Shown piece after piece: positions 752-23,356 of a DNA stretch of 64,000 nt (within the stretch, counting starts at the first letter, position 1; each line of letters opens with the position of its first letter). Location of the stretch: positions 109-64,108 of the forward strand of contig JBAUZB010000222.1 in NCBI GenBank assembly GCA_049585095.1, read 5' to 3'. Under the pieces are notes generated by a model. That model did no database searches. It was not told where the DNA came from and saw only the letters and a program-made list of their open reading frames with translations. Source of the DNA: Candidatus Tumulicola sp. GTDB lineage: Bacteria > Vulcanimicrobiota > Vulcanimicrobiia > Vulcanimicrobiales > Vulcanimicrobiaceae. The translations under genes and the position numbers were made by a program.

Positions 752-1849
752 TCATTTAGGCTCGTCTTGTTGCGAACCTGTGATGCCAACCTTCCAGGTG
801 GCCGACGCATCCGCGAGGGCGAGTCCTTCTAGCGCCTTCTTGAGCACCTCGGCCATGTCTGCCCGCGAGAACTCCAGCCGAAACGTCAGTCGTGGATGCG
901 TGAACTGCAAGTCAGAGTATCTTTGAATCGGCAGTTGGCGGTTGTTAGCGAACCGTCTATCCGGGCCTCCGTTCTTGTTTACGAACTGCCAGGTGGCCCC
1001 GACGTTCGTTGAGTCGGGCGGGACTGGTCCGTCCTCCCTGAAGTTTGTGAATGAGGCGCTTACGCCAACGTCCTTGTAGTTCATTGACAGTACCCCGGCC
1101 GGTCCGAAGAACAGCATCCGGTCAGGAAGCAATGCAAGTTTCCCGCCGGCAACCCAAAGCCACGGTATACTCACGTTTGCCTTGAGTGCGGCATCGTTGA
1201 AGGTGATTGCGGTTACACTGCGCTGGACTACCCTATCGGCTCCCGCCGTATACTTCGCATGGGCAGCAGCCTGAGACGTTACGCGCCAGATAGTAAAGCA
1301 CTGCGCCGCTACTTCAAACGAATGAATGAAGGCTTGATAGTATTTAGCAGCTAGGTCGGGAAGATTGTAAGTGAGGTTAACGCACCGGCGCTTCCCCTCG
1401 CGATCAGACAGCCACATGCTCCAGACAATCAGTCCTACAAAAGCCAGTGCTGCCGGTATGTAAAGCCGCGTGGAAAGGAGCAGCAGGGCAAGTGCAAAGG
1501 CTCCTGCGAGCACTAGGCGGCTCCAGCGGAACTCCTGGAGACGTTCGTTTATCGCAGCCGCCACGTCGTCATTCGTCGCAGGGACTCCGGCGAACTCTAG
1601 AGATTCGCTAGACGACTGTTGCGAGGGCCAAGTCCGCTGCTGCTCAGGCGACGGAACTGGAACAGCCGGTGACTTTGTGTTCAGGTATTGCCGATAGTAC
1701 AAGCCGCCGCGACCGGCGTGAATGTACGTTCCCTTGGGACCGACGCCAATGCGAAGACCCTTTACTCCGAACGATGTGCCGAGGCCGTGCTTCGACAGGT
1801 TCAGTCGGATTGGCCCGCGAGTTAGGCTTTTGCGAAGATACCACGGCAT
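752..1849 (-). CDS. DUF4236-domain membrane protein.
   Basis: From ORF 752..1879, with the start moved to ATG 1849. The N-terminus MPWYLRKSLTRGPIRLNLSKHGLGTSFGVKGLRIGVGPKGTYIHAGRGGLYY matches the DUF4236 motif as I recall it. Hydrophobic TM segments follow (LVLAGAFALALLLL, ALAFVGLIVWSMW), then an unassigned C-terminal domain of about 200 aa. Confidence 0.6.
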   Translation of the reverse strand: MPWYLRKSLTRGPIRLNLSKHGLGTSFGVKGLRIGVGPKGTYIHAGRGGLYYRQYLNTKSPAVPVPSPEQQRTWPSQQSSSESLEFAGVPATNDDVAAAINERLQEFRWSRLVLAGAFALALLLLSTRLYIPAALAFVGLIVWSMWLSDREGKRRCVNLTYNLPDLAAKYYQAFIHSFEVAAQCFTIWRVTSQAAAHAKYTAGADRVVQRSVTAITFNDAALKANVSIPWLWVAGGKLALLPDRMLFFGPAGVLSMNYKDVGVSASFTNFREDGPVPPDSTNVGATWQFVNKNGGPDRRFANNRQLPIQRYSDLQFTHPRLTFRLEFSRADMAEVLKKALEGLALADASATWKVGITGSQQDEPK

Positions 1850-1983
1850 GAAATAAGTCCCCCAGTCAACTAATACCATCGTCGCGACCGTTAAGCGCGC
1901 CTTCGCAGTAGGTCTCGCAAGTAATGCACGGACCGAGCCGCTCTGCGCGCCCCTGCCATTGCTTCATGAAGTCTTTTTCGCGC

Positions 1984-3510: not shown

Positions 3511-4239
3511 TCAGGCGGCGCTCCTCAATAAACGCAGTACTTGAACGTGATTCCACTTCTTGCCGGTGCGCGTGTAAAACCCCCGCGCATCAAGTGCGGT
3601 AGCGATGGCGCGTAGCGAGAGGCCGTCGCCCTTCAAATCCCGAGCGATAGTCGTAACTTCGGCGTTTGATTCGCGCGCAACAAGCGCTGCACGTCTTCCA
3701 GACGCTACAGAACCCCTTGCGCGATGTTCCGTGGTTAAACGACGGCATGCGGGGTTCGCGGCACCGAGAAGACCCCCGCGAGCTTTATACGCAGCGAGAG
3801 CCGTTTTTGTGCGCTCGCTGATACGACGCGCCTCGTCCTCCGCAACGGCAGCCATGATGTGAACCGTGAGTCGATTCGCGTGCGGCATATCACAGGCGCG
3901 GAACTCGACTCCCGCCTCCATGAGGTTCGCAATGAAAGCGACGTTGCGTGCCAAGCGGTCCAGCTTGGCAATCAGGAGGACCGCCTTGGCGGCCTTGGCG
4001 CGTGCAAGGGCTTTCCGTAGGACGGGACGTTCGCTTTTGCGACCGGATTCAATCTCTTGGTACTCGTCGAGGAGCGCGCAGCGGTTCTCCCGGCAGAACG
4101 CCGCGACAGCAGCGCGCTGACCCTCAAGTCCAAGACCAGACGCTCCCTGACGCTGCGTCGAGACGCGAATATACGAAACAACGGTCCTCACACTCTCATG
4201 GTACAGCGACCGGGACGGTCGTTCAAGGCTTTGTACCAC
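3511..4239 (-). CDS. Serine recombinase (resolvase/invertase family).
   Basis: The N-terminal catalytic motif is VVSYIRVSTQRQGASGLGLEGQR, followed by LLIAKLDRLARN. The C-terminal HTH-like segment is LSLRAIATALDARGFYTRTGKKW. The size (242 aa) fits a small serine recombinase. Confidence 0.9.
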   Translation of the reverse strand: MVQSLERPSRSLYHESVRTVVSYIRVSTQRQGASGLGLEGQRAAVAAFCRENRCALLDEYQEIESGRKSERPVLRKALARAKAAKAVLLIAKLDRLARNVAFIANLMEAGVEFRACDMPHANRLTVHIMAAVAEDEARRISERTKTALAAYKARGGLLGAANPACRRLTTEHRARGSVASGRRAALVARESNAEVTTIARDLKGDGLSLRAIATALDARGFYTRTGKKWNHVQVLRLLRSAA

Positions 4240-6062: not shown

Positions 6063-6536
6063 CTATGGAAAACTCCAGCCGACCTCCCTGAAAAAGTCTG
6101 TCGGCGTTAGCGACCTGACAGAAAGTAACCCATTGCGACAGAGCGCAGTGATGGGACCGTCGCGTGTCACTACCGGTAGGGCTCGTGCTTCGGCAGCAGC
6201 AAGCACCCAGCGGTCTACTTCACCTACGCTCCTTGGTATTGCTAATCCAGCCAGCCTCGCGAAAGCCCTTTGAACATCCGAGTCCGACTCGTCTACGGCC
6301 CTAGCTTTACATGCGGCTTGAACGGTTCTGCGCCACCGAGGAACTACCGGCATGTTTACAAGTTCTCCGATTACTTTTTTGCATGTTACGGCAGTACCGC
6401 CCCCGATTGCGGTTAGCATCGAAGTCCAAAGGCAGCCAAACACGTCTTCGGGGTAGTAACGTTCGCCCAAGTCTACAAATGCATTAGTATCGAACAGGTA
6501 CGTCGTGGCAACGGGTGTAGGACTAACGGCTGCCAT
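6063..6536 (-). CDS. DUF4411-family (PIN-like) putative nuclease/toxin.
   Basis: The N-terminus YLFDTNAFVDLGERYYPEDVFGCLW matches the DUF4411 pattern I recall (YLLDaNvfi...YYpfd.fp.fW). The C-terminal part reads VDRWVLAAAEARALPVVTRD...FFREVGWSF. The ORF overlaps the upstream ImmA/IrrE gene by 14 nt. Confidence 0.7.
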   Translation of the reverse strand: MAAVSPTPVATTYLFDTNAFVDLGERYYPEDVFGCLWTSMLTAIGGGTAVTCKKVIGELVNMPVVPRWRRTVQAACKARAVDESDSDVQRAFARLAGLAIPRSVGEVDRWVLAAAEARALPVVTRDGPITALCRNGLLSVRSLTPTDFFREVGWSFP

Positions 6537-7704
6537 AGACGCTAACAGCCTTTTCCCGGATTTTTGATACGTTGTCGTAACTTGGTGAGATTTGAAGCAG
6601 GTGCGCTGCCTGACTTATCGACAAATAGTCGCTATCGACGGCACTAAGTATAGCATTTGTGAACGTTGGGCCGAGACGCTGCACTTGCAGCAGATGATAG
6701 CTTGGACCCGCTTCGCTCTCGGAACTCCTCTCTCGTTCCTCGGTAAAGTACTGTGCGTAGGTTTGTAATCGCTGCTGCAACTGCGTCGCAGACAGGGCGC
6801 CAAACTGATTCAAGCGCACGGCCACTGCCGAATAACTGAGACAATATCGGTTTGCCAAGTACTCGATTAACGAATCTATAGCGATATGACTCTTTTCCTC
6901 AATATCATGAGCCAGCAGTTCAGTCGGCAACAGTGCCTCGCCTGCAACAAGATTACATCGGCGTTCGGTCACATTTGAGATTCGTCCGCGTATAGGATAA
7001 CATATCCCCGATTCGCGCATTAAGAGATGCGCTAGTTCATGTCCCATCGTAAATCTTCGGGCATTTGGCTTGTCCCGCGTGCTCAGCGCAACAATCGAAA
7101 GACCATCGCTGTACAGCGAACACCCCCGTAGGAACTTTGGGTCAATGATGAACTCGAAGACGAGAACCGGCAGATTAGTTTCTACAAGCTCTTTAGTAAG
7201 GCTTAGCGCCTTTGCCCCTTTCCAAAGCTCCTTACGCTCGTCCGTGCTAACGTGATTCCATTCCAAAACGCACAAAAGACCTCGAAGGTACTCGGCTATT
7301 TCTTTATCGTTCCTAAGAACGGGCAGCTTCGTGCGCGGCATGTCGAGGTCGCCAAAAAGGTCTAGTGCCGCATCGCGTCTCTCTCTCGCGATACGTAGAG
7401 TCTTTATCAGACCCGATGAGAACTCGCCGCCACCTTCCTGGGGTGACCGAAAATCAATCGGTAGCTCTTCCTCTTTTGGGGGGGCGTCACTGTAGAGGAT
7501 GTGCATTGGTATGCCGCAGGCGTGAGCGAGCTTTTCAAGTTGCCTGAACGTGATTGACCCACTCCCGCCTTCGGCTGCGGCCAGCCTTGCCGCGCTGACG
7601 CCCATCTTCTTAGCAGCATCCTCAAGCGTTAGCATAGTGGATTCGCGAGCCCACTTCAGCCGCTCGGGTCTGACCAAGGCTACGCGCCTCCTCGTATCGC
7701 TCAT
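6523..7704 (-). CDS. XRE-type HTH fused to an ImmA/IrrE (M78, COG2856) zinc metallopeptidase.
   Basis: The N-terminal HTH reads LKWARESTMLTLEDAAKKMGVSAARLAAAEGG. The HEXXH motif is in FTMGHELAHLLMRE. The start was moved to ATG 7704 (MSDTRRR), which has AAAGGTGA upstream. Confidence 0.85.
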   Translation of the reverse strand: MSDTRRRVALVRPERLKWARESTMLTLEDAAKKMGVSAARLAAAEGGSGSITFRQLEKLAHACGIPMHILYSDAPPKEEELPIDFRSPQEGGGEFSSGLIKTLRIARERRDAALDLFGDLDMPRTKLPVLRNDKEIAEYLRGLLCVLEWNHVSTDERKELWKGAKALSLTKELVETNLPVLVFEFIIDPKFLRGCSLYSDGLSIVALSTRDKPNARRFTMGHELAHLLMRESGICYPIRGRISNVTERRCNLVAGEALLPTELLAHDIEEKSHIAIDSLIEYLANRYCLSYSAVAVRLNQFGALSATQLQQRLQTYAQYFTEERERSSESEAGPSYHLLQVQRLGPTFTNAILSAVDSDYLSISQAAHLLQISPSYDNVSKIREKAVSVYGSR

Positions 7705-8085
7705 CGGTTCTTCACCTTTGGGGAATAGCACGATTCGCCATTGCCTCCTTCACAAATAGGCTTTTGAGGCTACGCCGACCCCTTGTGCTCGCTGTATCGC
7801 TCATTACGGGTCAAAACAGAGTTTCGGCGCCTCCTCCACTCGGCGCTGGTGTTATCCTTTACGTTCCCATTTCACCGCAAGGGGATTGCACAAAAACCCG
7901 CCCCCTAGCACGAAACTTGTAGCAGAGATGAGGCGGAAGTCATCGCGTGACTTGAACGTGCGTTGACGGGCGATTCTGGCCCAAAGACGCGCATCGGACG
8001 CGGTTCCCCCCGGCGAAATGTCGCCTAGCGGCGCTGCCTGGCGCGGCGCCGGGAGTAACAGGACGATTTTCCAAGAAAGCTGCGT

Positions 8086-9279
8086 GTGGAGGGCGATGCC
8101 ATGGTTGAAGACGATGGTAGCTCGACCATCTCTTGTCCGCGCTGCGGTCACGGGGTAAACGCTGAGGCGCGGTTCTGTCGGCGCTGCGGGAACACGCTCA
8201 GGAGTGCAACACGGCCCGCGTGTAGCCAGTGCGGTGCCGTAGCCGAAGCGGGTGACCGTTTTTGCCCGCATTGTGGTGATGCGCTCAGGCCGTCAGCGCA
8301 CGACGACTCCGATACTCAGCCGCTTGCCGCTACAACCCTAGGTCGCGAACGCGCAACTACGGACCCTCCGCTCGCGGAGGCAACCGAGGGTTCGGAGGAA
8401 GACGCTCTGCCGGGTGCTGACGAAATCACAAGGAAGCCCGCATCCCTTGGAGTTAGCCAGGGACTCTGGCTACTTGCCATCGGCGCCATCATCGTCAGTT
8501 TGTTTTACGGACAAAACATCGCGCGGATGCTGTCGTCATTGAACCCAGGGCAAGTCAACACCGAAGCGTCAACCGAACCAAGCCCAGTTAACGATGGCAC
8601 GCCATTGACGAATCCGATGGAAGAAGCCGTCCGACAATACTACGTTTCAGTCCGCGGTCACGATTTTGCAACGGCGTACTCCCTGTGGTCGCCATCCATG
8701 CAACGAAACCTCACCGCCGACGACCTTGCCCGCCAGTTCCAAGCAACAACCGACATTGATGCCACGATTTCAGACCCTCCGAGTGGCAACGCTGTCGGCG
8801 TGACTGTCATTCAGTCGGATACGTTTGGTGACTACGTTCGTAAGCGCACGTTCAAAGGCACTTGGCGCGTGTCAAATGTCGGCGGCCACTGGTTGTTGGA
8901 TGGCAGGGATTTCAAAACGGTTGTTGATACTGGACCTCCGCCCAACACCTCTGCTCAGCAAACTTCAACCGGGGCAAGTGAACCCGACGATAGTTCCGAA
9001 GCCATTGCCGCCGTTCGCGGGCACTATGAGCGGACGATTACACAGTTCATCGACACCCTTGCTAGTACTTCGGGCTTCGTGTACAAGCCTATTGGTTGGA
9101 AGGCCGTCAAGTCGCGTGGAAGGTGGACCGTGACCTACGCGCTTAGCGAAGACAACGGCGAAGGCCATATTGGGAAAGAGAGTTTCATATTCACCTACGA
9201 CGCGTCAACGCACCAGATGCAGCAAATCGGTGGAGCAGGCTTTCCGTACTTGAATATGGACAACGCCGACCCAGAATGA
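8086..9279 (+). CDS. Zinc-ribbon (double CxxC) membrane protein with NTF2-like extracytoplasmic parts (hypothetical).
   Basis: The N-terminus carries CPRCGHG..CRRCG and CSQCG..CPHCG motifs. One TM follows (GLWLLAIGAIIVSLFYG). The C-terminal region has EEAVRQYYVSVRGHDFATAYSLWS, a SnoaL/NTF2-like flavour. The start could instead be ATG 8101. Confidence 0.6.
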   Translation: MEGDAMVEDDGSSTISCPRCGHGVNAEARFCRRCGNTLRSATRPACSQCGAVAEAGDRFCPHCGDALRPSAHDDSDTQPLAATTLGRERATTDPPLAEATEGSEEDALPGADEITRKPASLGVSQGLWLLAIGAIIVSLFYGQNIARMLSSLNPGQVNTEASTEPSPVNDGTPLTNPMEEAVRQYYVSVRGHDFATAYSLWSPSMQRNLTADDLARQFQATTDIDATISDPPSGNAVGVTVIQSDTFGDYVRKRTFKGTWRVSNVGGHWLLDGRDFKTVVDTGPPPNTSAQQTSTGASEPDDSSEAIAAVRGHYERTITQFIDTLASTSGFVYKPIGWKAVKSRGRWTVTYALSEDNGEGHIGKESFIFTYDASTHQMQQIGGAGFPYLNMDNADPE

Positions 9280-16943: not shown

Positions 16944-17606
16944 CTAGCCGGGCCCAAGGTGAAACGGTAGTGCACTGCTTCGATGGAGCCTTAGAGGCGT
17001 GTTCGGCTTCACAGGTGCAGTCGATGAATCGCCCATAGCGTCGGTTATAGTCACGCGAAGAACTCGGGTTTGTGTGCCATTGTGCAACCAGAGGCGGTAC
17101 GCTTCTCCGGGCGCTATGGACTGAATAAAGCAAGGCGTCGAAAGCGTCGTGACCACCTTCTCTTCAGCGTCCACATCGTCAAGGACTAGCGTCACCTTGG
17201 CGTTTAACGCCGGTCCTCTTCCAATGCTGCGTATCTTAATCCGAACTAATCCACATTCACTCGCCTTAACGATGGAGCTTATGAGCAAGTGCGACTCAGG
17301 CTTGGTAATCTCCACCTGCATGTCGGGTCGGGCTGGCGGCTTGTCGGTGTCTATCTCGACTAGAAGAATCGGCTCTCGCTCAAGAGCCAACGTCTCTAGG
17401 GCGGCGCTAGCCGTTCCGTAGGCGTAGTACGCAGCACAGGCAGCTATGACAACAAGTAGTAATGTCGCAGTTCCTGTGAGCCACGCCGCCACGAGTCCGT
17501 AGTCGAGTGCGCATGGTCCATTGCTCGGCAAGAGCCATCGACCAATCAAAAAACCCGCTAGACCCGCAACGACGGCCATCGCCGCCAACATTGTCCACCT
17601 ACCCAC
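16944..17606 (-). CDS. Two-TM protein with a beta-rich (CARDB-like?) domain, hypothetical.
   Basis: The TM helices are MLAAMAVVAGLAGFLIG and LVAAWLTGTATLLLVVIAACAAYYAY, followed by VRIKIRSIGRGPALNAKVTLVL. It lies 43 nt downstream of 17650..19074 on the same strand. The architecture matches 19304..19945. Confidence 0.5.
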   Translation of the reverse strand: MGRWTMLAAMAVVAGLAGFLIGRWLLPSNGPCALDYGLVAAWLTGTATLLLVVIAACAAYYAYGTASAALETLALEREPILLVEIDTDKPPARPDMQVEITKPESHLLISSIVKASECGLVRIKIRSIGRGPALNAKVTLVLDDVDAEEKVVTTLSTPCFIQSIAPGEAYRLWLHNGTQTRVLRVTITDAMGDSSTAPVKPNTPLRLHRSSALPFHLGPG

Positions 17607-17649
17607 GGCTTAGGCCATTCGCGAGGACGTACTGGTTCCCCGTGCCCCG

Positions 17650-19074
17650 TTAAAGTGGCAAATGCTTGTCGGCGAAGTCCGACAGGTCTTGAACGACTGA
17701 CTCTCTACTTACTGTCTCCCCGCCCTTTCGTAACAGCCTTAACGTCACATCGGCAAAGCACTCTGCAAATGACTTTGCGAAGTCCGCGTCGTAGCCGTCG
17801 AGGTCGAACCCTCCCGGCAAGACCGGCTTAGAGTTCTGCCGCCCTGCGTGAAGGTTTAGTCTAAAGGCCATCCTGACGGTCTTCTCAAGCGTAAGGTGAG
17901 CGTAGAGCTTTCCTACGACAACAAAAACTGTTCCAATCAAGCATAGGTATTGCCAGAACGGGGATTCGTCATTCTGTTCAAAGCGGATGACTACTTCGCC
18001 ATCGGAGTCACACTCTATTTGCTGCTCCGGTTCTAGTGGCGAGCCGTCTCCTCTTTGACGCTCCCGTTGACCTGAAGTAAGCCATACGCCGTCCATCAGC
18101 GTGTCCGCCTTCAACGAGGAATGGAGCGGGCAGGTTGATTGCTTGCCGCGACTTGCAATCTCTATTACTTGAATCTCACGTTCATCAGACGAATCGAAAG
18201 TCCGACGCGCTCCGTATGCAGTGGGCACAACGCTACACCCAAGCACGAAGTCGGGATTGATAACTCGGCGCACGAGCGTGACCTTTCGTTCTCTTTCCGC
18301 GCCTAATGGGGATACGGTTATATTTGGCCGACTAGCGGTGACCTCACTGAACAGGCGCTTGACGTTTATTGAGAAATGCTCTAAGACTTCGTCGTTACTA
18401 TCAAATGGTACCGCGTTCAGCATGACCTTGTCACGCAGACCTTCTAGACGAACGCCGTCTTGAATGTAAAGCTGAACCTGAAGCTGCTTTCCGACAATCT
18501 CGGAGATATACGTTGCTATTGCAATCTCTTGTTCGACCCAAACGGAAGCTCGGTCGAATGGTGGCCAGTTGGGAACCGCAACCTGACCACGTTTATGCAA
18601 GATTCCCACAAAGCCGGAGCATCTGGATAAAGCTCCTAGAATATGGTCAGTAACGCCCTTGAACGAAGTTTGGTCTTTTGCGAAGTATCCTTCCGCGGGA
18701 GTTTCCTTCGTAATGATTGCGGCGATACTCTCTCCCAAATCGTATTCCTCGTCCGTCTGACCACAGCTTACAAAAACGAGTGGCTTCCCTCTCGCGGGTT
18801 TCGATTCCAATGCTTCTAATCGTTTAAGTCCGGCGTCCGAGATGGTCGTGCGGAAAATGCCGAAGTATCCGGGGCGACGGGTAACATGAATCAGCCCACC
18901 TTCTTTGAGCTTCTGCAAACGGGGAAGCAGGTCTGAGACATGAATCCCGAGGGACTCCCCAGCCAGGCGCGCGGGAGTGTCGAGCGTCGAGCTATTGGAC
19001 TCAGTCTGGGCCCCATCAGGTCCATTTGCTCGAAACCATCGCAGTACGTCGCGGTCCGTATCGTCCACGTGCAA
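17650..19074 (-). CDS. wHTH plus TIR-like (flavodoxin-fold) domain protein with an unassigned C-terminal half.
   Basis: The N-terminal winged-helix-like segment is LPRLQKLKEGGLIHVTRRPGYFGIFRTTISDAGLKRLEAL. The central segment is KPLVFVSCGQTDEEYDLGESIAAII...LSRCSGFVGILHKRG...SVWVEQEIAIA. This fits the TIR_2/DUF1863-type pattern (vFiSy..d...; S.Wv..Ei..A). About 230 aa at the C-terminus are unassigned. Confidence 0.55.
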   Translation of the reverse strand: MHVDDTDRDVLRWFRANGPDGAQTESNSSTLDTPARLAGESLGIHVSDLLPRLQKLKEGGLIHVTRRPGYFGIFRTTISDAGLKRLEALESKPARGKPLVFVSCGQTDEEYDLGESIAAIITKETPAEGYFAKDQTSFKGVTDHILGALSRCSGFVGILHKRGQVAVPNWPPFDRASVWVEQEIAIATYISEIVGKQLQVQLYIQDGVRLEGLRDKVMLNAVPFDSNDEVLEHFSINVKRLFSEVTASRPNITVSPLGAERERKVTLVRRVINPDFVLGCSVVPTAYGARRTFDSSDEREIQVIEIASRGKQSTCPLHSSLKADTLMDGVWLTSGQRERQRGDGSPLEPEQQIECDSDGEVVIRFEQNDESPFWQYLCLIGTVFVVVGKLYAHLTLEKTVRMAFRLNLHAGRQNSKPVLPGGFDLDGYDADFAKSFAECFADVTLRLLRKGGETVSRESVVQDLSDFADKHLPL

Positions 19075-19253
19075 CGTCTCCTCTTAGCCCAATGACCTAC
19101 TAACTGCGGAAATGGTAACATGGAAGCAGCACAACGGCGCAGTGGATTAGCGGCTGGTCGAGCCTCGCCAATCGCCACGACCCCACGCACGCCCCGGGAA
19201 CACACATGAAGGGGCTATCCCGGCCTGATAAGATGCCGAAGAGCCCCTGACTA

Positions 19254-19326
19254 GGGTATCCTCGGTTCGACGAAACCTAGCGTCTACGGAAACGATTATA
19301 ACAGTGACTTGGGTCCTCGGTTCGAC
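19254..19326. repeat. Direct repeat GGGT(A)TCCTCGGTTCGAC x2, spaced about 57 bp.
   Basis: Copies are GGGTATCCTCGGTTCGAC at 19254-19271 and GGGTCCTCGGTTCGAC at 19311-19326. They lie in the divergent region between 17650..19074 and 19304..19945. The second copy lies inside the 5' end of the long ORF call. Confidence 0.6.
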
Positions 19327-19945
19327 CGCACCGCTGCCCGTTATCGTTACGAATCCTCCTACGGCACCGTCGCCAGACTACTTAATGTACGGGCTAACCG
19401 GGGCGGCGGTCATTTTCACCTTTGCCACTCTGCTCTTCGCTGTCGCCGCGTGGTGGGTGAGTTTCGACCAAGCCATAAAGGCTGATGCACAGCGAGCGAA
19501 GCGACCGAACCCGAGTTTAACCTTCTCCTTCACACGTTCGTCTACCGAGCCCGATGCGGAAGGCCGATATGCCATCTTTTTGGAAGTCTACATTGTTAAC
19601 TACGGGACGGCACCAGCGAACAACGTTCATGCAACGCTTTCATTTCCTGCCAGCGTCGTATTCCAAGATTATGCTTCGGTGGTCAAGTACGGAATCGTGA
19701 CATCGGCTAGTCCGGACTACATTGAGCTGAGTCCAATGATTGATTCATTCGGGAACAGATGGGCGAATATTCACAACCGCGCGATGGAAGTTCTACCAAG
19801 CGAACCTCTACAGAAGCTCGGTTTTGGATGGTTCCTCGTTCGTCCCGGACCAAGTCGTATTCTGTGGCGCGTGAAGTGCCGCGAGGGAGACTTCCCGGGA
19901 CACAGCCTTGATAACGTCACTTCCGTTACGTTCGTCTCCGAGTAA
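19304..19945 (+). CDS. TM protein with a beta-rich (CARDB-like?) domain, hypothetical; paralogous architecture to 16944..17606.
   Basis: The TM helix is LTGAAVIFTFATLLFAVAAWWV, followed by RYAIFLEVYIVNYGTAPANNVHATLSF. The start is uncertain: GTG 19304, or ATG 19385 (MYGLTG...). Confidence 0.5.
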   Translation: MTWVLGSTAPLPVIVTNPPTAPSPDYLMYGLTGAAVIFTFATLLFAVAAWWVSFDQAIKADAQRAKRPNPSLTFSFTRSSTEPDAEGRYAIFLEVYIVNYGTAPANNVHATLSFPASVVFQDYASVVKYGIVTSASPDYIELSPMIDSFGNRWANIHNRAMEVLPSEPLQKLGFGWFLVRPGPSRILWRVKCREGDFPGHSLDNVTSVTFVSE

Positions 19946-20430
19946 GACGCCCGGCCGCTCTTCACAACGGGCATGCACGGTTTCAATCCGGCCTGAGCAT
20001 GGCTGCTCGCGGCTTGATTGCTCGGCCGTGACCATCTAATACCATCGGTGTCCGTCCATGAACAGTGGCTTTCGCAGCGCCGCCGTCGATAACCATCTGT
20101 GACCACGAGTGGCCATCGATTGCGGCGCCGCATTCGACCCCCGACGCGGCTACCAGCGTTCCGAAGCGTGAGCGCCGCCAGGCGCTCGTCCGGGGAGCCA
20201 TCGGGTAGCCAAACAGGATTTTCTGGGCTTTACATTCGTTTAGCTTCGTTACGTTTGCAAGGGCGGAAAGCCTGATTTTTAGGCACAATCTTTTCTTGCA
20301 TTGCGTAGCGTTTTGCTCGCCAAGAAGATTTGAAGACCGTGCGAACCACCAGATTCGTACGCTCCCACGTTTAGCGATAAGTCTTGCGCTGCAAGGGTTT
20401 TGCGGTGAACACCGCGCCGGCAATAGTTGC

Positions 20431-20524: not shown

Positions 20525-20881
20525 TCATTGCAGCCTCGGCCTGCGACGACAGCGCGACGTGTGAATGAGGTCCATCGTGATCGCGATGGTCGAGTGCCCG
20601 AGCATCTCTTGAATGACTTTCGGATGGACACCGTGTGCGAGAAGCTGGCTCGCGCAGGTCTGCAGCAGCGTGTGGAATGAAGCGCCGCTAAGCTTCGCGG
20701 TGCGTGCGAGGGCGCCGAAGCCGTCCGTGACTTTGCGCGGCGTCCACGGATTTCCGGCATCATCGCCCGGAAAGACGTAGCCGGGGCCGAGCCGACCCTG
20801 TGCGATCCGGTGATGTCGCAGCTTTTCGATTCCGCTCTTAGGTAGGGAACGACTCTCGACTCGCTCGCAACAGTCCGCCAC
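20525..20881 (-). pseudogene. Tyrosine recombinase (phage integrase family) C-terminal remnant.
   Basis: The 118-aa ORF keeps ASQLLAHGVHPKVIQEMLGHSTIAITMD, which is the conserved ...G.....vqe.LGHssi..T motif. The HxLRH box is degenerate (FHTLLQT). An Ile sits where the catalytic Tyr is expected (MDLIHTS). The whole N-terminal two-thirds is missing. Confidence 0.7.
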
Positions 20882-22078: not shown

Positions 22079-23356
22079 ATGCGCATGAGCTGTTTGGTCG
22101 TTCTGGCCGCCTCCATCGTCGGTCTATCGAGTTGCAGCCACGGAAACACGGCCTTACCGAGTACATCCGCACCGAATCACACCCCCAAACATCCGCGCAG
22201 CATCGGCGCGGTCTGTACAACATAGCGCGAGCGAGAAGATTCTTTATGCCTTTCAGGGTGGTCCGGATGGTTCGGGACCGGCCGCGATTCTACGAGATGC
22301 GCAAGGCATTTTTTACGGCACCACGCAAACCGGCGGCGGAACGGTTTTTTCCATCGACCCATCGTCAGGCCAAGAACGTATCGTGTACCGGTTCCGAGGT
22401 GCACCGGATGGGGCAACCCGCAGTCAAAGCTGGTCGGCGTGAACGGTGTTCTCTACGGCACTACCAGTAAGGGGGGCTTGTCCGGCTGTCGCTGCGGAAC
22501 CGTTTTCTCCGCCAGTCCCTCGACCGGTCGCGAGCGCGTTGTGTACCGCTTCGGAGGCATGCCCGACGGGGATACTCCCACAGGCGATTTAATCGTGGTG
22601 AACGGCGTCTTGTACGGCGCGACCGTTTGGGGTGGTAATCCCGGCTGTTGGCCCCCCTCCGGGTGCGGAACCGTTTTCGCCGTCAACCTCGTGTCGGGAC
22701 AAGAAACCGTAGTTTATCGCTTCCAGGGTGGAGGGGATGGTGAACATCCATTTGCGGGGCTGCTCAGCGTAAATGGAACGCTGTATGGCACGACTGCTGA
22801 GGGCGGCATTCCCAGTGGCTCAGGTTGCGACTATGGCGATGGATGCGGAACGCTTTTCTCCCTCGAGCCGTCGTCGGGTACCGAAACTGTACTCTATCGC
22901 TTCCCGGGCGGGCAAAACGCCGAACGGCCGTATTCCAGCCTGATCGATGCGAACGGCGCACTGTACGGCACCGCGGGCGGGGGCATTGCAGGTACGGTGT
23001 ACACGTTCAGTCTTGCGCCCGGATTGGAGAACGTGATTTACACTTTCAGAGGTGGCGACAAGGACGGTACAGGTCCGTTGGCCGTCCTCTACTTGAACGG
23101 TGTGCTGTATGGCACTACGCAAGGCGGAGGCTTTGGCTGCCACAACTACTTCAAAGGTTGTGGAACGGTGTTCTCCATTGACCTGTCATCAAGACATGAA
23201 ACCGTTCTCTATAGCTTCAACGGTGGTAAGGACGGAGCACGCCCCTATGCCGGTTTAATTACGTTGAACGGGACGCTTTACGGCACGACGGATGGTGGCG
23301 GCGGTTCGTGCGGCAATAAGAATGGGTGCGGCACGGTTTTCGCGGTGACTAAGTAG
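22079..23356 (+). pseudogene. GloVer-type (choice-of-anchor tandem repeat) lipoprotein, interrupted by two compensating frameshifts; intact ORF 22439..23356.
   Basis: Repeats NGVLYGTT..GG...GCGTVF.....G.ETVLY.F.GG.DG..P match the Gloeo_Verruco repeat as I recall it. The lipoprotein signal MRMSCLVVLAASIVGLSSC (22079-) is in the same frame as 22439... The first repeat (SEKILYAFQGGPDGSGP...IFYGTTQTGGGTVFSIDP, about 22230-22412) is in another frame. Confidence 0.6.

Follow-up and report, generated by a model that had tools for sequence, protein, structure and literature searches.

A TIR-like protein of an uncatalogued family and its two membrane-protein neighbours in a Candidatus Tumulicola contig

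Does a gene for a TIR-like protein that lies between two genes for small membrane proteins form a defence cassette with them, or is it complete in itself? The question is raised by positions 16,944 to 19,945 of a 64,000-nt stretch of contig JBAUZB010000222.1 (assembly GCA_049585095.1, contig positions 109 to 64,108). This stretch, hereafter the window, is nearly the whole of a 64,377-bp contig in a metagenome-assembled genome (MAG) of Candidatus Tumulicola sp. (Eremiobacterota). The original prediction, made from the sequence alone, described a winged-helix and TIR-like protein flanked by two paralogous proteins with transmembrane (TM) and beta-sandwich regions, and proposed an uncharacterised defence or abortive-infection module. 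The three open reading frames (ORFs) and the peptides quoted for them are present at 17650-19074 (minus strand), 16944-17606 (minus strand), and 19304-19945 (plus strand). In this study, we evaluated the trio by structure modelling, family searches, and comparison of gene neighbourhoods. The first observation was largely correct. Its interpretation of the central domains was right; the paralogous flanks and the three-gene module were unsupported. Probably, the central protein is a sensor and an enzyme in one self-contained unit; the module and the defence function are both unproven proposals, the latter suggested by analogy with known systems.

The central protein and its TIR-like core

The central gene (17650..19074, minus strand) encodes a protein of 474 aa from a TTG start and corresponds, with 100% identity, to WB615_11240, annotated by NCBI with 472 aa. 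Homologues align with the protein from its first residue, which supports the TTG start at 19074. An AlphaFold2 model, built from a 103-sequence alignment, had a mean predicted local distance difference test score (pLDDT) of 80. The protein consists of a winged helix-turn-helix (wHTH), a TIR-like domain, and a family-specific C-terminal domain.

The TIR-like or N-glycosidase-like domain (aa 96-242, 18349..18789, minus strand) represents an uncatalogued family. In the model, aa 99-242 have the topology bA(99-103)-aA-bB-aB-bC(152-159)-aC(178-194)-bD-aD-bE-aE, with pLDDT mostly 85-98, and match the five-unit beta/alpha flavodoxin-like order of TIR domains. Foldseek gave probabilities of 0.95-1.00 to TIR structures. 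Among the PDB matches of the core were the TIR-APAZ protein of SPARTA (E = 6e-4), the TIR domains of RPP1 (E = 1.5e-2), flax L7 (target-normalised TM-score, TMt, 0.56), and SpbK (TMt 0.48), and a second group of enzymes comprising BcmB (E = 8e-4, TMt 0.69, probability 1.00), DNPH1 (TMt 0.62-0.65, probability 1.00), MilB (TMt 0.57-0.60, probability 1.00), and NDT (TMt 0.45-0.46). Matches in a viral structure library were NDT-like and unnamed proteins. TIR NADases and MilB/DNPH are structurally related, cleave N-glycosidic bonds, and share a catalytic Glu (10.64898/2026.09.21.753143). This known relationship supports the assignment of the central domain as TIR-like with a flavodoxin fold, as had been proposed; the model was confident, and no non-TIR fold emerged from it.

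Four motifs mark the core: FxSCGQ (101-106), HxRG (160-163), RxSVWxEQEIAIA (175-187), and EGxR (211-214). The third contains a WxxxE motif, W-V-E-Q-E (aa 179-183, 18526..18540, minus strand), which stands at the start of helix 178-194, after strand 152-159, and ends on the putative catalytic Glu183. In TIR NADases, the catalytic Glu sits in a WxxxE motif (AbTir W204/E208) (PMC10641520). The claim that WVEQE carries a Glu at this position was borne out in alignment and model alike, with W179xxxE183 placed as expected and E183 found in 253 of 253 domain sequences. On motif grounds, the WxxxE on helix C and the FxS on strand A are TIR-type features. C104, R162, R175, S177, E181, G212, R214, and F224 were likewise present in all 253 sequences, and W179 (251/253), Q106 (251/253), and H160 (250/253) were near-invariant, in a set of homologues that was partly retrieved via motif-containing words. 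The invariant polar residues cluster at the end of strand A, in the bC-aC loop, at the start of helix C, and in the segment after strand D. Such a pattern (Glu, three Arg, His, Cys, and Ser) would be typical of an active site.

The core is not covered by current sequence models. The central protein matched no Pfam, NCBIfam, or PADLOC model, including the curated TIR hidden Markov models (HMMs; Pfam TIR, TIR_2, ThsB_TIR, and CAP12-PCTIR_TIR; PADLOC TIR) and PF13271 (DUF4062). When 103 full-length and 40 domain-only relatives were compared with the TIR HMMs, just single sub-threshold matches were obtained. In the Pfam search with the 40 domain sequences, these weak matches were DUF4062 (1/40, at 1.6e-3), TIR_2 (1/40, at 0.025), and CAP12-PCTIR_TIR (1/40, at 0.093), and no match to the Nribosyltransf clan or to Nuc_deoxyrib_tr-type families was found up to E = 5. 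PADLOC returned nothing meaningful for the relatives. The family fails the DUF4062, canonical TIR, and NDT profiles and is therefore not filed as a member of those families; it forms a family of its own within the TIR-like/NDT-like structural group.

The N-terminal winged helix of the original prediction was confirmed by the model. The first 95 residues (18790..19074, minus strand) form three main helices, a two-strand wing, and a C-terminal helix, with pLDDT mostly above 90 (82-97). A recognition helix and a beta-wing of the MarR-type fold are present, and Foldseek matched the MarR-family protein MexR (1lnw, probability 1.00, root-mean-square deviation, rmsd, 3.3 over 91 columns) and ZitR (6fi9, probability 0.99). 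At the sequence level, hints were weak, and no Pfam MarR or HTH family scored above threshold for this domain. Residues 243-275 are a low-confidence linker. They are followed by a C-terminal alpha/beta domain (aa 276-474, 17653..18249, minus strand), the part that had been left unassigned. Its stand-alone model, built from 8 sequences, had a predicted TM-score of 0.78 and no significant PDB match (best E = 0.084). By its model, this is possibly an undescribed domain, and it is presumed to be a sensor or regulatory module. A weak resemblance to AdoMetDC/TBP-like alpha+beta folds was seen. An APAZ-like domain was suspected here because the SPARTA TIR-APAZ alignments spanned 366-504 columns. These long alignments had a TM-score of about 0.2 and an rmsd of about 25, and the stand-alone model had no APAZ structure among its top 50 matches; the candidate was rejected.

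Size, architecture, and neighbourhoods of the family

Only aa 96-235 of the central protein are common to most homologues. When 1.84 billion representative proteins were scanned exhaustively with HMMER for this segment, the core family came to 590 clusters at E ≤ 1e-3, mostly from soil Acidobacteriota and Eremiobacterota, and to 447 under the stricter limit of E ≤ 1e-10. A genome scan covered one genome per species (185,579 species), used the motif pattern SVW[VI]EQEI only, and was confirmed by tblastn. About 90 stretches were confirmed, and 80 loci were kept. Nearly all of these loci come from soil or peat MAGs of Acidobacteriota, and a minority from Eremiobacterota, Myxococcota, Gemmatimonadota, and other phyla. 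One MAG carries two family copies (L045 and L080).

The architecture was classified for 253 proteins. A C-terminal extension only was found in 134, N- and C-terminal extensions together in 75, and an N-terminal extension only in 35; the remaining 9 consist of the domain alone. The extensions fall into 30 N-terminal and 39 C-terminal clusters, singletons counted, and none of the regions fused to the core contains a Pfam domain. The commonest C-terminal extension, Cc0, occurs in 116 of the 253 proteins; it is beta-rich, spans about 150 aa, and carries the signature L-x-V-x-l-x-N-x-G-x(3)-i-x(2)-y-x-v-x-v-x-F-P. At least two N-terminal classes (46 proteins) look winged-helix-like. The wHTH module of the central protein is common to 16 relatives, and its wing region also occurs in another N-terminal class. 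Its C-terminal domain is confined to about 14 close relatives. Across the family, the core is constant and the N- and C-terminal modules are swapped.

Two loci from Eremiobacterota MAGs (L007, 7770-9221; L010, 253-1427) carry a full-length homologue split into two ORFs, by frameshift, pseudogenisation, or assembly error. The 283-aa protein P0014 is a C-terminal fragment of a split full-length homologue.

Gene neighbourhoods were compared at 76 non-redundant loci, with four genes taken on each side. The 532 neighbouring proteins formed 493 clusters, of which the largest (Ser/Thr kinases) spans 4 loci. No conserved partner gene was found, as no cluster is common to more than 4 of the 76 loci. 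The family thus has the look of a rare, patchy, solo accessory gene.

Some neighbours recur at a few loci. The Ser/Thr kinases are the most recurrent (4-5 loci: L090, 2026-2784; L032; L053; L057; L071). They match PADLOC PD-T4-6/mad6-like models through generic kinase similarity, and they may recur simply because these phyla are rich in kinases. Proteins that combine pentapeptide repeats with a canonical TIR domain (ThsB_TIR/TIR_2-type) lie 1-3 genes from family members at three Acidobacteriota loci (L012, 8936-10216; L014, 8889-9275; L057, 6294-7355). Cas1-like genes neighbour the TIR-like gene in L035, L008, and L015; the gene at 2526-3839 of L035 is Cas_Cas1 by both Pfam and PADLOC. XRE-type HTH genes and a toxin-antitoxin-like DUF2442/DUF4160 pair flank full-length homologues in L087 (7125-7818 and 4795-5595) and L002 (2908-3845), which is consistent with accessory or mobile regions.

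A protein of about 1019 aa, with no Pfam or PADLOC match, is encoded immediately upstream of the full-length homologue in L001 (2854-5913), L006 (1-1241), and L089 (1238-2176). The three copies are about 75% identical to each other, and a 30%-identical relative (135-1250) lies about 7 kb away in L008. As a partner, this protein was rejected: it recurs at those three loci and is absent from the window. A 360-aa gene that overlaps the stop of the L001 homologue was also rejected as an operon partner, being a lineage-abundant secreted repeat protein that is not specific; its likely start is further downstream than the overlap. The window itself encodes a relative of it, a repeat protein (22439-23356, plus strand) with units of the type '...LYGTT..GG...GCGTVF...' and no Pfam match. 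Its relatives stand directly downstream of the homologue in L001 (7425-8931; 32-43% identity) and in L034. This type of repeat protein is probably a lineage-abundant secreted family and not a partner.

The flanking genes and their genomic setting

The gene arrangement around the central gene is as originally described. The 220-aa ORF (16944..17606, minus strand; 211 aa in the NCBI annotation, WB615_11235) begins 43 nt past the central stop on the same strand, and hydropathy shows two N-terminal TM segments ahead of a soluble region of about 150 aa. The intergenic stretch contains no terminator-like site, and the two genes may be co-transcribed. The 213-aa ORF (19304..19945, plus strand) is divergent from the central gene across a 229-nt spacer and has one TM segment by hydropathy, followed by a soluble region.

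The claims that joined these genes into a module were not supported. The two flanking proteins had been called paralogous; compared with each other, they gave a BLASTP E of 0.095, confined to the TM region, and an hhalign P of 0.05. Neither contains a Pfam domain, and PADLOC matched none of the trio proteins. No homologue of the 213-aa protein besides itself was found in 5.8 billion proteins. The 220-aa protein has one homologue outside the MAG, P0122 (51% identity), on a 2.7-kb contig whose 616 nt upstream encode nothing like the central protein. By tblastn against 85-90 loci, both flanking proteins are absent from 7 other loci with full-length homologues (L001, L002, L006, and L087-L090) and from the 80 genome loci. 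The trio module is not supported because homologues of the central protein show no synteny with the TM proteins. A Thoeris-like logic, in which a TIR sensor is paired with a separate effector, is likewise unsupported (the PADLOC null, flanks free of Pfam domains, and no synteny).

One faint link between the flanks and the family was seen. Residues 86-124 of the 213-aa ORF (…LEVYIVNYGTAPANNVHATLSFPASVV…; 19559..19675, plus strand) carry a beta-hairpin signature like that of Cc0. In a search with the Cc0 HMM, this ORF was the best of 355 window ORFs (16.1 bits, E = 1.4e-4); the best unrelated ORF among 1,207 from other loci scored 10.2 bits, and none of 200 shuffles reached 16.1 (maximum 3.8). 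The hhalign comparison gave P = 6e-4 with a probability of 28%, over a match of 36-38 residues that covers one hairpin signature. It may be a generic beta-sandwich motif and not specific homology. The 220-aa protein gave a marginal match to another C-terminal extension class (E = 0.18 among 355 ORFs), which 1 of 200 shuffles also reached. Both flanking genes are lineage-specific, lie in a decayed mobile element, and count as neighbours and not as established components.

This setting agrees with the low-GC accessory segment near recombinase and integrase remnants that had been reported. Local GC content at the trio is 0.526-0.556 versus 0.62-0.70 beyond 33 kb, and is the minimum of the window except for 6-7 kb. 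In all three trio ORFs, GC is lowest at second codon positions, which is a coding signature; at third codon positions (GC3), it is 0.55-0.59 versus 0.72-0.75 in the core genes of the window. A C-terminal fragment of a tyrosine recombinase (phage integrase) at 20525-20881 (minus strand; PF00589, 6e-11, profile positions 90-167 of 172) is a marker of the decayed mobile element adjoining the trio locus. A serine recombinase of 242 aa (3511-4239, minus strand; matches to the Resolvase and Recombinase domains) is probably truncated. The truncated nuclease-like fragment mentioned in the original prediction was not identified; the ORF at 19983-20423 has no Pfam match. Elsewhere in the window are a DUF4236 protein (752-1879, minus strand), an HTH_3/Peptidase_M78 (ImmA/IrrE-like) regulator (6523-7731, minus strand), and a double-zinc-ribbon protein (8086-9279, plus strand); the other neighbours of the trio are TonB_C, NHL-propeller, and repeat proteins. 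No tRNA gene was found in the window, and no recognisable defence island was seen around the trio. The surroundings look like an accessory, decayed mobile segment, and the low GC of about 1-33 kb together with the recombinase, the integrase fragment, and the DUF4236, HTH_3/Peptidase_M78, and zinc-ribbon genes suggests one or more decayed integrated elements.

Readings of the locus and comparison with known systems

We give about even chances to the proposal that the product of the central gene works alone, as a single polypeptide belonging to an undescribed TIR-like family, in the following way. The core would act as an N-glycosidase on NAD+ or a related nucleotide, and the motif and the model make Glu183 its predicted catalytic residue. 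The phosphates would be held by arginines from two places, the long bC-aC loop and the segment after bD. Until a trigger binds, the enzyme would be kept inactive by the winged helix and the C-terminal domain, which would serve in sensing or regulation. Biologically, the protein may act in conflict or defence of the abortive-infection type, by analogy with single-gene TIR-like NADase systems that have a conserved core and a diversified auxiliary region. The accessory character of the gene is supported by its low GC3, the integrase and recombinase remnants, and the finding of about 90 stretches in the scan of 185,579 species.

Several observations weigh against this proposal. On the structural side, the Foldseek E-values of the core are modest (1e-4 to 1e-2) and do not separate TIR from NDT-like proteins, and the bB-aB (BB) loop has only about 6 residues (132-137) in the model, unlike the extended loop of canonical TIRs, which mediates activation through oligomerisation. 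At the sequence level, the sporadic weak matches reach no significance to TIR, DUF4062, or NDT models, and profile searches of PDB sequences with full and domain-only alignments gave no match. The apparent invariance of the core residues is inflated somewhat because retrieval relied partly on the motif or on shared words. The winged helix could equally indicate a transcription factor. As for defence, the 126 immediate neighbours at the 76 loci, assigned with Pfam and PADLOC, are mostly housekeeping or miscellaneous genes, with sporadic defence-type ones (ThsB_TIR twice, Cas1, AbiEi, and PycTIR) and no signal of defence-island enrichment. No relative was found in plasmid and phage collections.

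Three other explanations were weighed. In one, the protein is a transcription factor whose MarR-like wHTH binds DNA, for example in the 229-nt spacer, and whose TIR-like domain senses a nucleotide or other ligand without catalysis and modulates that binding, with the neighbouring genes as the regulated targets. Flavodoxin-like domains often act as ligand-binding modules, a divergent arrangement such as that with the 213-aa gene is common for local regulators, XRE/HTH genes adjoin several homologues, and the wHTH is confident with MarR-family structural matches. We nevertheless regard a transcription factor as unlikely: 143 of the 253 members (about 57%) lack an N-terminal extension and keep every invariant polar residue in an active-site-type pattern, the wHTH reaches no Pfam HTH family, and a wHTH in a TIR-like defence protein can bind protein instead, as KpSwz illustrates. 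An enzyme of the MilB/BcmB/DNPH1/NDT type, which would hydrolyse or transfer the base of a (deoxy)nucleoside monophosphate in salvage, sanitation, or secondary metabolism and not in conflict, is just as improbable in our judgement. The top target-normalised TM-scores (BcmB, DNPH1, and MilB), the viral NDT-like matches, the many metabolic neighbour genes, and a short BB loop that may be read in the model as more NDT-like speak for it. Against it, none of the 40 domain sequences has a Nuc_deoxyrib_tr-type match and the few weak Pfam matches are all TIR-type; WxxxE is a TIR feature; and no conserved biosynthetic cluster occurs among the neighbours of the 76 loci. Varied and fast-evolving N- and C-terminal modules, patchy rarity, the double copy in one MAG, and a low-GC3 mobile context are atypical of housekeeping enzymes.

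The explanation that we consider very unlikely is the three-gene abortive-infection cassette, in which sensing or signalling would fall to the TIR-like protein, with the two TM/beta-sandwich proteins as membrane effectors in a Thoeris-like manner. It draws on the close same-strand spacing and the divergent layout, on N-terminal TM segments in both flanking proteins, and on the Cc0 match of the 213-aa protein, a Rosetta-stone-type hint that stood above about 1,560 control ORFs and 200 shuffles, with a weaker hint of this kind for the 220-aa protein. That match is just 36-38 residues long and of low hhalign probability. The flanking proteins stand beside none of the 7 full-length homologues and at none of the 80 genome loci, nothing like the central protein is encoded in the 616 nt upstream of the only homologue of the 220-aa protein, the 213-aa protein is a true orphan, and paralogy is unsupported. 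PADLOC found no match, and the family has no conserved partner.

Returning to the self-contained enzyme, a broader version of it can be put forward, which we hold to be doubtful. The family of about 590 clusters, defined by its four motifs, may be a new, database-invisible class of TIR-like enzymes that cleave NAD(P)+ or nucleotides and act as single-gene anti-phage or conflict sensors of soil Acidobacteriota and Eremiobacterota with exchangeable sensor modules: the beta-rich C-terminal domain in about half of the members, and the wHTH with the novel alpha/beta domain in the central protein. The window locus would then be a 'split' variant in which the 213-aa protein, and perhaps the 220-aa protein too, would be a membrane-anchored copy of the beta-rich module that is otherwise mostly fused to the core, and would work with the enzyme in trans.

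TIR-like NADases are a central theme of bacterial, plant, and animal immunity, and DUF4062 (Swarozyc, Evangelion, and TEP1), a second 'dark' branch, was shown in 2026 to consist of active NADases. The core family described here is a further branch, undetected by Pfam, NCBIfam, and PADLOC models and confined to soil phyla that have received little study. Its active-site signature is unusually rigid, and the modules on either side of the core are exchanged freely. The repertoire of TIR-like enzymes would grow if this family is catalytically active. It would provide a fresh HMM for defence-finding tools, and one core with many sensors would offer a compact system for the study of enzyme gating. 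In view of the DUF4062 discoveries of 2026, biochemical work on the family would be worthwhile. The three-gene cassette, attractive as it looks, comes from orphan genes that happen to lie together at this locus, and it should not be passed on as a system.

Among known systems, MarR regulators resemble the central protein in its N-terminal 95 residues, on which MexR and ZitR superpose. They differ in that its wHTH is fused to an enzyme-like domain and the dimerisation helices typical of these regulators are not evident in it. With TIR NADases (AbTir, TcpB/BtpA, ThsB, PycTIR, and SPARTA TIR-APAZ), the core shares the five-unit beta/alpha fold, FxS on strand A, and WxxxE on helix C with an invariant Glu. 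Unlike them, it fails all TIR HMMs and combines a BB loop that is very short in the model with a long bC-aC loop that carries invariant His and Arg residues, and the central protein has no ThsA, Ago, CD-NTase, or cyclase partner. No ThsA-type effector of the Thoeris kind was recognised among the trio proteins, and the APAZ domain of SPARTA was not found after the TIR-like core. Target-normalised structural overlap is highest with the group of MilB, BcmB, DNPH1, and NDT (TMt up to 0.69), which also has a catalytic Glu, and by analogy the core may share the N-glycosidic-bond chemistry of the TIR/NDT group. It has no sequence similarity to these families, and WxxxE and a modular multi-domain build are not features of these small metabolic enzymes.

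The closest functional precedent for the central protein, by analogy, is the DUF4062 (PF13271) branch. Swarozyc (KpSwz) and Evangelion (Eva01) are single-gene abortive-infection anti-phage NADases with a TIR-like core and a diversified auxiliary region (AUX), and the branch also includes the eukaryotic TEP1 TeTIR/NIR. The motifs differ: DUF4062 proteins have an aromatic F motif, an acidic-SYT region with the catalytic Glu, and Q/W/E, whereas the new family has FxSCGQ, HxRG, RxSVWxEQE, and EGxR. The new family also differs in showing no detected enrichment in defence islands or plasmids, and the central protein in adding a private C-terminal domain to its N-terminal wHTH. In both cases, a TIR-like core distantly related to TIR and NDT keeps a conserved catalytic-type Glu, and a single gene joins a conserved core to a diversified auxiliary region, with no conserved neighbour in the new family. 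Of all Pfam links seen for family members, the one to DUF4062 was the strongest, weak as it is (the 1 of 40 at 1.6e-3). In KpSwz, the AUX has an HTH/winged fold and binds the phage portal, and the central protein likewise carries a winged helix.

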